From Chiloscyllium plagiosum (Eukaryota): DNA of 48,766 nucleotides. Positions 3,096 to 33,143 of this stretch are shown here, in pieces (the stretch's first letter is position 1; each line of letters opens with the position of its first letter). The translations under genes and the position numbers were made by a program. The notes under the pieces were generated by a model. It did no database searches. It was not told the DNA's origin and worked only from the letters and a program-made list of their open reading frames with translations. The DNA lies in NCBI RefSeq assembly GCF_004010195.1, contig NC_057760.1:3444117-3492882 (forward strand). Direction: 5' to 3'.

Positions 3096-3262
3096 CCAGG
3101 GTGCTGTTGCTCAGTCCGGGTGACTTTGCTCTTGTGGTGAAACAGACAGTGGCAGTAACACAGGTGACATCTCTGTCATTTCTCTGGCAGTTCCGTAGGA
3201 GCATATTGATGAAGGGAGGACTGAATGTAACTGAGGCATTCACCTGGACCACACGCAGTATC
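3096..3262 (-). CDS. ITGA10: Integrin alpha exon, start of thigh domain
   Basis: 167-nt exon (ctatag|G ... CTG G|gtaag) encoding (G)ILRVVQVNASVTFSPPFINMLLRNCQRNDRDVTCVTATVCFTTRAKSPGLSNSTL. It is phase-compatible with the 131-nt exon and has the C..C..CF pattern of alpha1/2/10/11. It is absent from the ORF track. Confidence 0.85.
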
Positions 3263-4118
3263 CTATAGTCAGAGTTTGAAAGGTGTGGTAAGAAAATGAT
3301 TGAGGAGAGTCAGTCTGCATTAGAGAGGGAGGGAGGGAGAAAGAGGTATTTTGGGGGAGAGAGAGTAATGTTGGAGAGGAGAGTGCAGTGAAGAGACAGT
3401 GAACATCCCAGAACAACAGAAGGCAAAGAGACTGGAACTGGAAAGAGAACAAGCAATAGATCTAACTGCACCACACAAGAGAAAACAGATGAGAGACAGA
3501 GATAATGGAAGCGAGGGCAGGAAACATGCAGGAGCCCACACCGTAAAGACAACAAGAAGCAGCCATAGTGCTGTGCACAACAGGAGTGTCTGACAGAGGT
3601 AGAAATTGTAACAGGTTTATTTTCTTCTTGGTCTTCTGGACCAGAAGTGCTGTCCATACGTAACGCCCTCACACACCCTGACTGGGCCTTGTAGATAATT
3701 AAAGAGAGCTTCCACAGTGTTTGGAGCCAGACAGGTTCTGCTGAATTCCCCAAAGATGTCCAGGTGATGGCTCAGTTACAGCATACTGCAGAGAAGCAGT
3801 TCATACTGACCGCAAATAAAAATCATTCAAGTAACACCACTAGAATAAGCACTGACCATTCACAAGATGTAACAGCAGTTGCTGTTCGCATTACTAAGAC
3901 AGAGCATATTGTTCAGACTGCGATAGCTCGAGTTGATAGGTTAGAGACCTTTACAGTAGCTGAGTGGACATTCTGATTAACTCACAACTCAGCGCTGGTT
4001 AATGACTGTGAGTTCTCAACCAATTCAAAAAGCTAGTTCAACTCAGAAATGTGAAAGGCAAAAGATTAAACACATACTTGTGACCTGTTACACCATTAAT
4101 TTAATTTTAATGTTGAAT

Positions 4119-4460
4119 TCATTCACAGGAGGAGGGTGTCACTGGCCAGCCCAGCATTTCTTGTCCATCCCTAATTGCCCAGAGGGCAGTTAGGAGCCAA
4201 TCACATTGCTGTGGGTCTGGAGTCACATGTCGGCCAGATCAGGTAAGGTTGTCAGTTTCCTTCCCTAAAGGACATTAGTGACCCAGATTGGGTTTTTTTC
4301 CCACAATCCACAGTGGTTTCATGGTCACCATAAGACTCTTAATTCCAGACTTTGTTTTTCATTGAATTCAAATTCCATTATCTGCTGTGGCAGGATTTGA
4401 CCCCATTATCTGGACCCCTGGATCAACAGTCCAGCAATAAAACCACTAGGTCATCACCTT
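4119..4460 (-). mobile_element. tRNA-derived SINE, family 2
   Basis: Similar sequence recurs at 16455-16755 (+), 30643-30895 (-) and 47880-48225 (-). It has a tRNA-like head, and its 3' end resembles the LINE tail at ~29480-29525. Confidence 0.6.
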
Positions 4461-4843: not shown

Positions 4844-4974
4844 CCAAAGATGACAGCCTTGCCGAAAGCTCCCACTGCCACATCGATCAATCCATCTCCG
4901 TCCACATCCATCTGGCCATCCGCACTGCGTCCAAAATACCAAAGTCCCAGGTCCACGGCCAAAGCAGCAATTCT
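4844..4974 (-). CDS. ITGA10: Integrin alpha exon, last FG-GAP repeat
   Basis: 131-nt exon (cag|AGA ... TTT GG|gtcagt) encoding RIAALAVDLGLWYFGRSADGQMDVDGDGLIDVAVGAFGKAVIF. Its phase-0 start matches the preceding exon. Confidence 0.9.
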
Positions 4975-5410
4975 CTGAGAGAACAGAAGGTTACAGTAAT
5001 CAATGCATGGGACATGTTCTGTTTCTGTCAGTAAAGACAACCACAGACAATAGAAAGAGCTTTCTCTCACCGCAGATCCAAATGTGGGGGCTCTTTCGAA
5101 CACAGTTCACAATCTACAAAACTATTCGATCTACTCAGATTCAACTGGGTTTTGGAAAGTGAATTCTAATTAGTCCTACACCTCTGTCTATCGTGGCTCT
5201 GTAAATTTCTCCTTTTCCAGGGTTTAATCCCATTTTCCTTCTGAAAGTTGCTACTCCACCTACTCCCACCACCCTTTCAGACATTCCAGATCAAAACATG
5301 CGCAAAGAGGAATTCACCTCATCCCACCCCATCTGCTTTCTCTGTCAAATATCTTAATCTCTGACTATCAACCCTCCCGCTGTTTCTCCATAACTTACTT
5401 CATCAAAAAC

Positions 5411-6077
5411 AAAGTTAAAAATCACACAACACCAGGTTATAGTCCAACAGGTTTAATTGGGAGCACACTAGCTTTTGGAGCAACGCTCCTTCATCAGGTG
5501 ATAGTGGAGGGCTCGATCGTAACACAGAATTTATAGCAAAAATTTGCAGTGTGATGTAACTGAAATTATACATTGAAAAACTGATTGTCTGTTAAACCTT
5601 TCATCTGTTAGAATACAGTGATAGTTTCACTTCTTTCATGTGTAAATCACAAAACCCTTTTTTTTAAAGTTGCATTCTCGGGTTAGCTGTTAACAATGGT
5701 GATAGCTAGATAATATGTTGAACTATCTTATACGTATTGTCTAGCTATCACCATTGTTAACAGCTAACCCAAGAATATACAACTTTAAAAAAAAGGGTTT
5801 TGTGATTTACACATGAAAGAAGTGAAACTATCACTGTATTCTAACAGATGAAAGGCTTAACAGATAATCAATTCTTCAATGTATAATTTCAGTTACATCA
5901 CACTGCAAATTTTTGCTATAAATTCTGTGTTACGATCGAGCCCTCCACAATCACCTGATGAAGGAGCGTCGCTCCGAAAGCTAGTGTGCTTCCAATTAAA
6001 CCTGTTGGACTATAACCTGCTGTTGTGTGATTTTTAACTTTGTACACACCCCCAGTGCAACACCGGCACCTCCGATC
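5411..6077. mobile_element. Penelope-like element remnant forming a ~635-bp inverted repeat, with a 10-bp TSD
   Basis: Arms 5409-5718 and 5732-6043 are near-perfect reverse complements. CATCAAAAAC occurs at 5401-5410 and 6078-6087. A hammerhead core is present in each arm. Confidence 0.8.
5952..5986 (+). ncRNA. Minimal type-I hammerhead ribozyme motif (Penelope-associated)
   Basis: cac-CTGATGA-a-GGAGC(gtc)GCTCC-GAAA-GCTA-gtg: intact core, stem II hairpin, palindromic AGCT stem III and cac/gtg stem I. Confidence 0.7.
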
Positions 6078-6179
6078 CATCAAAAACCTTTCTGATTTTG
6101 AACACCTTGAATAAGTCTCCCTTTAACTTTCTCTGCTCCAAGGAGAATATCCCAGCTCCTCCAGTCCCTGTACACTGAC

Positions 6180-6383
6180 CTGTTTATACGTTGGAAGAAT
6201 GGTGTCTTGATGTCCATGATAAATATACACTGCCCCACGATGATCATCCTCCAATGGGGCACCAACAACGACATCATTAAACGCATCGTAATTAAGGTCA
6301 GGAACAGCAATGAGGGTGAACCCGAACCGGGAATCCTGTGGTTTGTTGCTGATCTGTAGAGTATCGCTGAATGAAAGCGAAAA
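6180..6383 (-). CDS. ITGA10: Integrin alpha (ITGA10/ITGA11-like) internal exon, FG-GAP beta-propeller repeat
   Basis: 204-nt exon between cag| and |gtcagt. It encodes FSLSFSDTLQISNKPQDSRFGFTLIAVPDLNYDAFNDVVVGAPLEDDHRGAVYIYHGHQDTILPTYKQ, with an FG...GAP repeat and a DxNxDxxxD Ca-binding loop. QDSRFGF resembles ITGA10 as recalled; ITGA11 is not excluded. Confidence 0.9.
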
Positions 6384-7122
6384 CTGACAGGGACATGGAC
6401 CAGGGGAAAACAACGTCAGTTATATTTCCACATTGTTCTCCTATTGCTGCAATATTAATCGTTAATACTTGACCATTCTTCCAACAGACTCTTTCTGGAA
6501 AACAAGGTTAAGATGTTGCGATGCGTTGGCCCTTGATTTACCCAAACCTGTCAGCTGTTTTTGAGAACCATGTCCTGGCAGAGAAGACCCAGAGGCTATA
6601 TATATATTTATATATATATATCTCAGAAGGTGAGAACAGTTGTAAGACAGAGATGGAGCTTGGGAGATGAGAATAATATGTAAATAGCTCATTTTGTAGT
6701 TTAGTGAAACAATTCATGACCAGGGAAGTAAGGAGGGGCTATTTGCCGACAAGCAGTGAAGGTTAATCCAGCCAGTCACAGAGGCCAGCTCTGTCTGCAG
6801 GAAACAGCCTGTATTAACTGCTGGGCATTTAATGTGAGACTCTAGATCAGACATACAAGGAAAAGAAAACACTTAATTAATTAATGTATTAAAGATTTTT
6901 CTGCAAAACAATTTGTGCTTGAATCAGGTGGAAATTATTGTTGAAAGGTCTTACACTGCGACAGTAACTACTGGAGGAAATCTGAGAAACTGGGAAGACA
7001 ATGTCCAAACGGTATTTCACACAGCAGCTGTCCCACAGCACAGACCAATGAAACAAAAGTCTCCTCTTCATTCAAACTCAAATCCAACAAGTAAAATTAC
7101 ACCACTCAGTACTCCCAATGAC

Positions 7123-12945: not shown

Positions 12946-13863
12946 TGATGTGAGTATGGAGCAGCACTGGAATAGTTTCACAAGCAGCTTCTAAACAGCG
13001 TCTCAAAATTCAAATATTAAGCAGTTGCATCAGTCTCGTAGCACAAAATGGCCCTACTTTCTTAGCATTACAAGTGGAATAAATGAACTAGCTGTGATAA
13101 GTTACTGAGGCCAATCATGTGAGGGAACTGGATTGACGTCTGAGCCACAGTCAGTGACACACGGTGCTGGAGACAAATACTGAGTAGCATAATGAGGAAA
13201 CTGGATTAACATCAGCAGAAATAGTGACACGGTGAACTGAGAGAGTTGTTGTCAACTAATAGCATGAGAGAGCTGCTTTAACATCAGTAGAGATACATTT
13301 ATTGAAAATAGGACCTCTGGGTGCAGAGGTTACAAATGAAAATGTAAAAAAGGGAAACATAACAAAAATGAAAGCAGAAAGTACTGGGAAACCACAGGAG
13401 GTCTGGCAGCATCTATGGAGAAAGAAAGGGAGTTAATGTTTCAGCTCCAATACGGTGCAATGGAAGTGAAAAGAATTGAAAATGTGATGGGGTGTGGGGT
13501 GGTGGTGGGGGCAGATGTGGGGGGAGATGGTCACAATAAACGAAAGGGAAGGTCAGGAATAGGTCAGAGGTTGGGAAAGTTTAAATGACAATGATATCAT
13601 TGAACGAAAGGCAAAGATACTAGTGATGGAAGCCCTGGTCCACATGGAGTGTTAATGGCAAAATAAAGAATAACTCTCTCTGAAAGAAAGAGAAGCCATT
13701 GAAACAAATTACAGACGGCCAGCTGGTGAAACATGGAATCAGACTGGAGGGCAGAGTTTGTGGCCTGAAGTTAATGAGTCCAGAAGGCTGCAAAATGTCG
13801 AGCTGGAAGATGAGTTGTTTTATTTATTCATGAGATGCTGCCTTCTTGAACAGACAATCAAGG

Positions 13864-14008
13864 TATTTTTCAATGTATCATTTCAGTTACATCACACTGT
13901 AAATGTTTGTGCGTTAGGACTGAGCCCTCCACTACCACCTGACGAAGGAGCGACGCTCCGAAAGCTAGTGCTTCCAACACTAACCTGGTGTTGTGTGATT
14001 TTTAACTT
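13864..14008 (+). mobile_element. Penelope-like terminal repeat fragment with an intact hammerhead core (13936-13970)
   Basis: Similar to 5875-6040; contains cacCTGACGAaGGAGCgacGCTCCGAAAgctagtg. Confidence 0.7.
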
Positions 14009-19760: not shown

Positions 19761-20740
19761 AAGCTGAGCTGGGGAAACTGGCCATTCTCCTTTCATTGTG
19801 CAAATGCTTTTTAAAAAATGTAAAAGCCTTTGCCTGTTAGCTATAATCAAATGAGCCCTAAAACCCTTCGACCTCAGATGTTTCGGAGTCTGTGTCTTTC
19901 ATGACCTCTCTAAAAAAAGCCAAGGGCAACATAACCTTGTTAAAGGAGCAGCATCATCACATATTGAACCTTATTACATTAAGATCGCTATTTCCCAAAT
20001 GCTCCCCCACTCTGATATTCTTCACTTGGCTTTCCTCATTCCCTTGAACCGTATCCAGCACAGCTCCCTCCTTTGTAATACTGAAAATGTACTGTTCCAA
20101 AAAGTAGTCCTGCACACATTGCAGGAATTTCTCCCCTTCCGTGTTCCACAATCTATCTTTTTCTCAGTCTACCCTTGGGTAGTTGAAATTAGCAACTATC
20201 ACAACCCTGCCTGTCCTGTAGATGTCCATAGTCTGCCTGCAAATGCTCTCTCCTACTTCCTCTCGATTATTTTACACATAATTACCCAACAAGTCACTGC
20301 TCCTCTTCTGTTTCTTCCCTCCAAACATTTAGATTCTGCTTAAGGAGCTGCATCTCGTTCAAGGGCAATGAGACCATCTCTGACCATGATGGCTACACCT
20401 CCTCCCTTTGTACCCTTATAATGCAGTATGTTAGCTATCCAGGTCCTGTTCTGGCTTGAGTCATGTTTTTGTCAGTGCTACTATGTCATCTCCTCCAGAG
20501 CAATGTTTGCTTCTAGTTCCCCAGTTTTGTCCACAATACTCCATGCATTTATGTACATACAACAATTTAACCTTGGCCTTACCTCTTTCTTGCCTATTGA
20601 CCCTCCTGATCCCCTTCTCTGTCATGGTGAGCGAGTTGATTTCTCCCAGAATCCTCCTCAGTCGTTTCTCACTGTCGCCTGTATTTCAAATGGACCACTT
20701 TAAGGAATATCATTCCATGTCTGCCAATATTTTGTTTCAG

Positions 20741-20839
20741 GCTGGACAAACTGCCCTACATCTTGCAGCGGAAGGGGGTCACTTCAACTGTGTAAAATTG
20801 CTGCTTGACAATCAATGTCAGATCAACGTGTATTGCAGT
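20741..20839 (+). CDS. ANKDD1A: ANKDD1-family ankyrin exon
   Basis: 99 nt, tttcag|...|gtgagt, encoding AGQTALHLAAEGGHFNCVKLLLDNQCQINVYCS. Confidence 0.92.
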
Positions 20840-21419
20840 GTGAGTACAAATGTGAAGCAGTCTAAGTACAGGTCTAGAGCCTGAAGCACATAGTGTGGGT
20901 ATGTGGTGTAATCCTACAGAGCTGTTCCACATAACAGTGTAAACATTGACCACTTACATTTATACAACATCTTTAAAGCAGTGAAAATCCCAAGGCACAT
21001 CAATGGAACTTTATCAAACAAAATTTGACATCTAAGATATCTAATGATCACATTTGGTCAAAGAGGTCAACTTTCAGGAGCATCTTAAAAGAGGGAAGAC
21101 AGCCGCAGAGGATGAGGGAGTGAATTCCAGAACTTTGAAAGAGCTTGATAACAGAGGGTACAGTTGCCAGTTGTGGAGTGACTGAAATGGGGACGGCTGA
21201 AAGCATCAGAAATGTGACAGTGTAGAGATCTTGGTGAGATTTCAGGTGTGAAGAGATTACAAAAAATAGGGAGGGGCAATGTCACAAAGGGATTTAAAAC
21301 AAGGGTGGAAATCTTAAAAGTGAGGCATTGCTATCATTGGGATCAAGTATGATTTAGCAATCACAGACTAACAAATAATAGGAGTAGGAATTAGGTCATT
21401 CAGCTTTTCAGTCCCACCA

Positions 21420-32927: not shown

Positions 32928-33143
32928 AGAGAAAGGGAGGACTGCAGATGCTGGAGAGTCTGAGTTGAAAAGTGTGGAACTGGAGAAAGCACAGCAGATC
33001 AGGCAGCATCTGTAGAGCAGGAGAGTTGACAATTCGAGGATCAGTCCTTCATTCTGATAAAGCACTTATGCCTGAATTGTTGACTGTCCTGCTCTTTGGA
33101 TGCTGCCTGACTTGCTGTGCTTTTACCAACATCATGTTTTTGA
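32928..33143. mobile_element. Degenerate Penelope-like foldback inserted in a CR1 3' end (32813-33590, minus)
   Basis: Same inverted arms as 2720-2950; the hammerhead cores are decayed. Confidence 0.6.

Follow-up and report, generated by a model that had tools for sequence, protein, structure and literature searches.

An intron of an integrin alpha-10 gene in Chiloscyllium plagiosum carries what is, with high probability, a dead insertion of a Penelope-like element (PLE). Two truncated ends of the element lie head-to-head, the mirror half probably arose in the course of integration, and the hammerhead ribozyme of the element is predicted to be inert. This architecture has already been published for PLE insertions, and the insert is one of very many such stubs. 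All positions given here refer to the window, which is the whole analyzed stretch of 48,766 nucleotides.

The left arm of the fold-back is an inverted, 5'-truncated and tail-less copy of the 3' end of the element on the minus strand (5409-5722), and it tracks the family sequence up to 5722. The right arm is a direct, 5'-truncated copy of the same end on the plus strand (5732-6043), which terminates where many family copies terminate too. Between them lies a junction filler of 9 nt (5723-5731), or of up to 12 nt if it is extended to 5734, without a match to the upstream sequence of the family. No nearby template was found for this filler, and a lone 10-mer match 39 kb off was taken as chance. 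An 8-nt palindrome is located at the junction (5730-5737). In the arm alignment 5409-5718 paired with 5732-6043, with 12 substitutions at 309 aligned positions, one 2-base indel and 13 unpaired nt separating the two arms. This agrees with the near-perfect inverted arms of about 310 bp around a loop of about 13 nt described in the first-pass annotation of the sequence. The head-to-head orientation was read from the hammerhead and the tail. A long direct repeat was not found at the element, which leaves a single head-to-head pair and no tandem array. The arm is non-coding, as none of the six frames checked held a notable open frame. At 3.9%, divergence between the arms exceeds the 2% divergence of the flank to relatives (8 of about 402 letters), which counts against the reading as a PLE insertion, although exon makes up half of this flank.

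The unit is bracketed by a target-site duplication (TSD). The perfect 10-mer CATCAAAAAC is found at 5401-5410 and 6078-6087 on the plus strand, the only two occurrences in the whole window, and is missing from the minus strand of the window. The flanking 10-bp direct repeat claimed earlier was therefore exact. The last 2 bases of the left copy are common with the arm end, and the duplication may extend to 12 bp with one mismatch. Among 20,000 random flank pairs, 7 gave a comparable match. An unpaired tail of 34 nt with 76% A+C (6044-6077, plus strand) follows the right arm and has no counterpart on the left, and part of the family has the same tail. Since these 34 bases lie between arm and duplication on the right, the ends are asymmetric and the terminal inverted repeats do not abut the TSD on both sides. 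The tail had been missed when the insertion was given as 635 bp, a value which holds for the hairpin alone, whereas the insert between the duplications measures 667 bp (5411-6077).

The insert-bearing intron spans 1,205 nt (4975-6179) and has GT/AG ends. Its upstream exon, an FG-GAP repeat of integrin alpha-10 on the minus strand (6180-6383), has the donor GT at 6179-6178, 92 nt from the insert, and its downstream exon (4844-4974, minus strand) has the acceptor AG at 4976-4975. Three consecutive exons were placed on the minus strand by tblastn. The flanking exon was 100% identical to a Chiloscyllium punctatum integrin alpha-10-like protein over 98% of 60 residues and 95% identical to that of Stegostoma. 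Protein matches, tblastn exons and splice ends together confirm the earlier assignment to an integrin intron with the gene on the minus strand. Upstream of 6386, tblastn detected no integrin alpha-10 exons across 42 kb (6387-48766); the missing exons may be hidden in N gaps, or the assembly may be interrupted at this place. The exon encodes IAALAV at 4955-4974, in contrast to IAASAV in the closest named protein (P0004), a change that is an allele, a species difference or a sequence error. Besides, the window holds tandem repeats of about 58 bp each (2041-2674) and, on the plus strand, an open frame (20435-20884) with a putative ankyrin-repeat-like stretch, probably an exon of another gene.

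To describe the family, the right half of the element and its flank (5722-6480) was aligned to 4 of 24 runs, namely three contig sets of DNA type and one run of RNA. The three sets gave 44,102, 45,210 and 35,390 aligned contig pieces, which are not copy numbers. The family is very abundant. Its depth peaked at 5982-6033 and dropped upstream, the profile expected from 5' truncation. At 6038 and 6041, loose ends entered unrelated AT-rich flank (agreement 0.34-0.37), while those at 6043 and 6047 entered a shared tail resembling that of this copy. Therefore, the family has two 3' ends, one with and one without the tail. Further loose ends before 5735 (33, 35 and 60 records) showed that the family extends upstream of this fold. 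Strand-switch joints were found at 5946-6009, around the hammerhead, among the 15 of 92 joints listed, and these positions indicate that other family copies fold elsewhere. Most of the listed joints had one end at 5946-5953, which is 2-9 bases before the hammerhead core begins. The fold of this copy is situated about 220 bases upstream of there, and none of the 15 joints lay at it. Only 5, 5 and 7 records in the three sets ran over either end of the aligned stretch. Among the aligned contigs none spanned the whole element, the right half only having served as the query. A further copy of the family in the window (13846-14008; 75% identical) is solo, truncated and tail-less, with intact core boxes on the plus strand.

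One contig each in the related organisms B and C (X13 record 8 and X14 record 16) matched only from 6076 rightwards. Another 980 and 986 letters of these contigs lie off the element, which is the length that an empty site predicts. With an empty site the contigs would start at 4419 and 4413, beside a repeat that ends at 4397, a place at which contigs would be expected to break. From the start of the match and the off-element length we infer that the insert is absent from the contigs of both relatives. A contig of organism A (X4 record 24) carries the tail, the duplication and the flank; this run is possibly not independent of the assembly. As the family continues upstream and the insert is missing from the contigs of two relatives, it is best described as a one-off truncated insertion and not as a MITE or retrozyme.

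Similar structures have been described for PLEs. Insertions reported in PMC8557442 are 5'-truncated, often with an adjoining inverted truncated copy, and have a tail of 30-40 bp at one end; inverted pLTRs arranged head-to-head with 8-10-bp duplications are described in PMC3846280. The shark insert resembles the endonuclease-bearing units of these two reports in the inverted truncated copy, the optional tail at one end and the short TSD, but differs from them in retaining no coding sequence. The PLEs of PMC4209133 were described as having two minimal hammerheads 100-700 bp apart on opposite strands, and the shark insert has dual motifs of this kind. Likewise, the Poseidon element PAc of Anolis has, as described by Frangieh et al. 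2024 (PMC11167929), two 3' ends with an AC-rich tail between them and AT-rich flanks at the tail-less ends, as found for the shark family. The PLE tail is explained there as the gap between two reverse transcription start sites within an AC-rich stretch. In the same account the ORF of PAc begins inside the hammerhead, whereas the ATG in the shark core meets a stop after 8 codons. Accordingly, the Penelope origin proposed in the first-pass annotation is supported by an architecture of published type, the tail, the TSD and the paired minimal hammerheads.

The right arm holds an intact motif of the minimal type-I hammerhead on the plus strand (5952-5986). Its core lies at 5955-5961 with an extra A at 5962, helix II is formed by 5963-5967 and 5971-5975, the GAAA box occupies 5976-5979, the palindrome is AGCU, helix I has 3 bp and the predicted cut is 3' of A5983 at a UH site. 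The motif thus combines all features of the class, namely the CUGAUGA and GAAA boxes, G10.1-C11.1, an extra base after A9, a palindromic helix III and the UH site. Its mirror copy on the integrin sense strand (5466-5500, minus strand) departs from this consensus at G12, through G12>A at 5476. The earlier description of an intact right-arm motif and a left-arm change from GAAA to AAAA therefore holds, and a second CpG change was found in the loop at 5482. The core boxes, the extra base between 9 and 10.1, G10.1-C11.1 and the palindromic 15.2-16.2 are shared with the minimal PLE hammerheads described in PMC4209133, so that these consensus features support the minimal type-I class and the cut predicted after CUA. 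In comparison with the Schistosoma motifs of that report, which have 4-5 bp in helix I and 7-8 bp in helix II, the shark motif is shorter (3 and 5 bp).

The search with hammerhead models and patterns that had been suggested as a check gave a divided result. Rfam returned 13 matches at E<=5 and none of them to a hammerhead family, and for this reason the hammerhead call rests on consensus features and not on a model match. The microRNA matches in Rfam mirror the hairpin, with scores under the gathering thresholds. A loose hammerhead pattern matched three times in the window at 1.6 expected, which is chance level, and was replaced by a stem-checked scan, which did find the motif. Folded in isolation, the motif was no better than shuffles (z -0.7 to -1.4). 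For minimal hammerheads PMC4209133 reports no cleavage of the monomer and low cleavage of dimers in vitro, and the dimer model is restated in PMC6765202. In our two-copy co-fold the lowest energy (-32.7 kcal/mol) belonged to a non-catalytic pairing, and helices II and III alone reached -18.9 in this model without tertiary terms. A best predicted dimer fold that is non-catalytic would weaken the notion of a functional ribozyme and lends the dimer model no positive support.

A connection of the motif to Penelope-type genes came from other sequence collections. The hammerhead pattern had no matches in viral contigs but was detected at two marine loci in the metagenome (L001 and L002), with a motif identity of 34 of 36 nt, and coding pieces of reverse transcriptase (RT) or GIY-YIG type adjoin the hammerhead in both. 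One locus encodes an RT fragment (RVT_1, E 1.4e-5, 25.3 bits, under the cut-off of 29.6). The other has a frame of 177 residues with 47% identity to the C-terminal region of P0123, a protein that contains RT; a second relative, P0122, gave only a weak GIY-YIG match (E 0.0086), and Pfam assigned the L002 frame to no family. The two loci share the hammerhead-bearing segment and differ in the upstream PLE-type coding pieces, and in L002 the first 109 bases are repeated inverted at 983-1091. When two PLE fragments were compared with the window by tblastn nothing convincing was found (best E 0.01). The hammerhead motif is thus tied to PLE-type genes in another organism by way of 36 nt, which is no proof for the shark family.

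Within the fold-back the ribozyme would hardly be able to form. Pairing of helix II was 0.89-0.90 for the isolated intact motif and 0.44 for the isolated left motif, but fell to 0.0000 on either strand once the full element was folded, and likewise in five truncated transcripts of the minus strand; all of these are equilibrium predictions only. The long double-stranded RNA hairpin that the first-pass annotation expected in the intron RNA is thus supported by prediction. The ribozyme is predicted to be captured by the 310-bp hairpin on either strand and hence to be inert. In either direction of transcription the arm with the sense ribozyme is the second to be made, by which time the complement exists, and the hairpin is predicted to capture the ribozyme. 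The hairpin fills more than half of the 1,205-nt intron and could be a candidate substrate for RNA editing. From about 6% of one RNA run (X22) no reads aligned to 5722-6480, a result that bears on neither expression, cleavage nor editing.

The broken core does sit on the integrin sense (minus) strand and the intact core on the antisense strand, as noted in the first pass, which had offered two explanations, selection against self-cleavage of the integrin pre-mRNA or ordinary CpG decay. The strand position is what selection predicts, and a depletion of retrozymes from introns in Xenopus, reported in bioRxiv 10.64898/2026.07.22.740005, points in the same direction. Nevertheless, we consider it highly improbable that selection broke this core. 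G12>A is a CpG transition seen at 9.2, 11.8 and 11.2% of family depth in the three DNA-type sets, within the range of five neighbouring CpG positions, which change at 3.8-34.9% of depth (three at 3.8-18.1%, another at 23-35%); the percentages are weighted by depth and take no account of gene orientation. Of the 12 CpG copies present in the arms, 3 have decayed, two of them on the left side and one on the right. Moreover, on either strand the ribozyme is predicted to lie buried within the hairpin, and the in vitro behaviour of single and dimeric minimal hammerheads in PMC4209133 speaks against selection as well. As the sense ribozyme always lies in the second-made arm, little would be left for selection to remove. 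The opposite pattern was observed at a second fold-back (2714-2914) of a different hammerhead-bearing family, just past an exon at about 3097-3267. Here the minus strand, which is gene-sense, carries the intact GAAA and the plus strand the broken one; the helix III palindrome is lacking in both copies. A third, strongly decayed fold-back at 32986-33123 resembles this family. Selection is not needed, given that neither strand is predicted to fold into a ribozyme within the hairpin and that the nearby fold-back shows the reverse pattern; because of the predicted burial the one broken ribozyme likely reflects plain CpG wear. Of the two explanations, CpG decay is thus favoured by family depth, hairpin folding and the nearby fold-back. 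If the head-to-head geometry silences the ribozyme on both strands, fold-backs would be unsuited to testing selection on intronic self-cleavage, and solo copies would be suited.

The mirror arm could have been made in several ways. Twin priming is known for L1. For PLEs, the protein described in PMC11167929 cuts and extends both strands in vitro, the hammerhead being dispensable. In one route, a PLE endonuclease would cut the two strands 10 nt apart. Element RNA would then be reverse-transcribed from each free 3' end, with synthesis beginning at the tail start for the right end and, for the left end, at the tail-less start located 34 nt upstream. Both cDNAs would halt after about 310-345 nt and be joined via 9-12 nt of filler, gap filling would create the duplication, and the arms would afterwards decay neutrally, the CpG sites fastest. 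We give this route of two primers and two end-joined cDNAs roughly an even chance. It is favoured over a clean snap-back by the tail-less arm, which is longer inside, and by the non-family filler; however, cDNAs ending about 10-13 nt apart would need a shared stop. Such a stop is not required if the same element produced its mirror arm by self-priming, that is, if the cDNA or antisense template folded back and was copied, as argued in PMC3846280 for palindromes at the inverted junctions of rotifer Penelope elements. The near-equal arm lengths and the 8-nt palindrome at 5730-5737 suit such an event, which we regard as possible though not as the expected origin. A clean snap-back predicts a longer tailed arm and a loop of family sequence, whereas the tail-less left arm keeps to the family sequence 7 nt beyond the point up to which the tailed right arm follows it without a mismatch, and the filler between the arms is not of the family; this arm comparison comes from one locus only.

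Two further readings concern the unit as a whole. It is non-coding, has near-perfect inverted arms and a target duplication and belongs to a very abundant family, features that would also suit a non-autonomous mobile unit of MITE or retrozyme type that spreads as a hairpin of 635-670 bases. Non-LTR retrozymes, which resemble the insert in being non-coding, PLE-related and equipped with a type-I hammerhead (PMC7229834; bioRxiv 10.64898/2026.07.22.740005), have indeed been proposed as PLE derivatives in the latter report. However, retrozymes are head-to-tail tandem repeats in both reports, with canonical hammerheads in PMC7229834, and give circular RNA, whereas the insert is one head-to-head pair and never has two sense ribozymes per transcript. 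Its ends are asymmetric, the family passes the fold and folds elsewhere in other copies, very few aligned records overran the ends of the aligned stretch, and the copy at 13846-14008 is a solo tail-less fragment. The retrozyme- or MITE-like derivative suggested in the first pass is therefore not upheld, and we consider a mobile hairpin improbable. It is scarcely conceivable that the palindrome is an assembly artefact, as the assembly gaps (1,982 N) and the lack of a spanning contig among those aligned with the right half might suggest. The arms differ at 12 positions and by an indel and both carry changes derived from the family, the duplication on the two sides of the unit is perfect, and X4 record 24 carries the junction of tail, duplication and flank.

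The preferred reading thus remains a truncated PLE insertion with a mirror half made at integration. More specifically, we tentatively suggest that the fold-back may be a fossil of target-primed reverse transcription that a dimeric Penelope enzyme carried out twice, with one cDNA for each staggered nick and internal start site, end-joined head-to-head. The single locus matters little. Shark genomes, in turn, offer a large natural sample of Penelope junctions in which the origin of the inverted arm can be tested. If the double-priming reading is true, the asymmetry of arm lengths, the fillers and the subfamily bases at many shark junctions could settle how the inverted repeats and one-sided tails of Penelope elements are formed.
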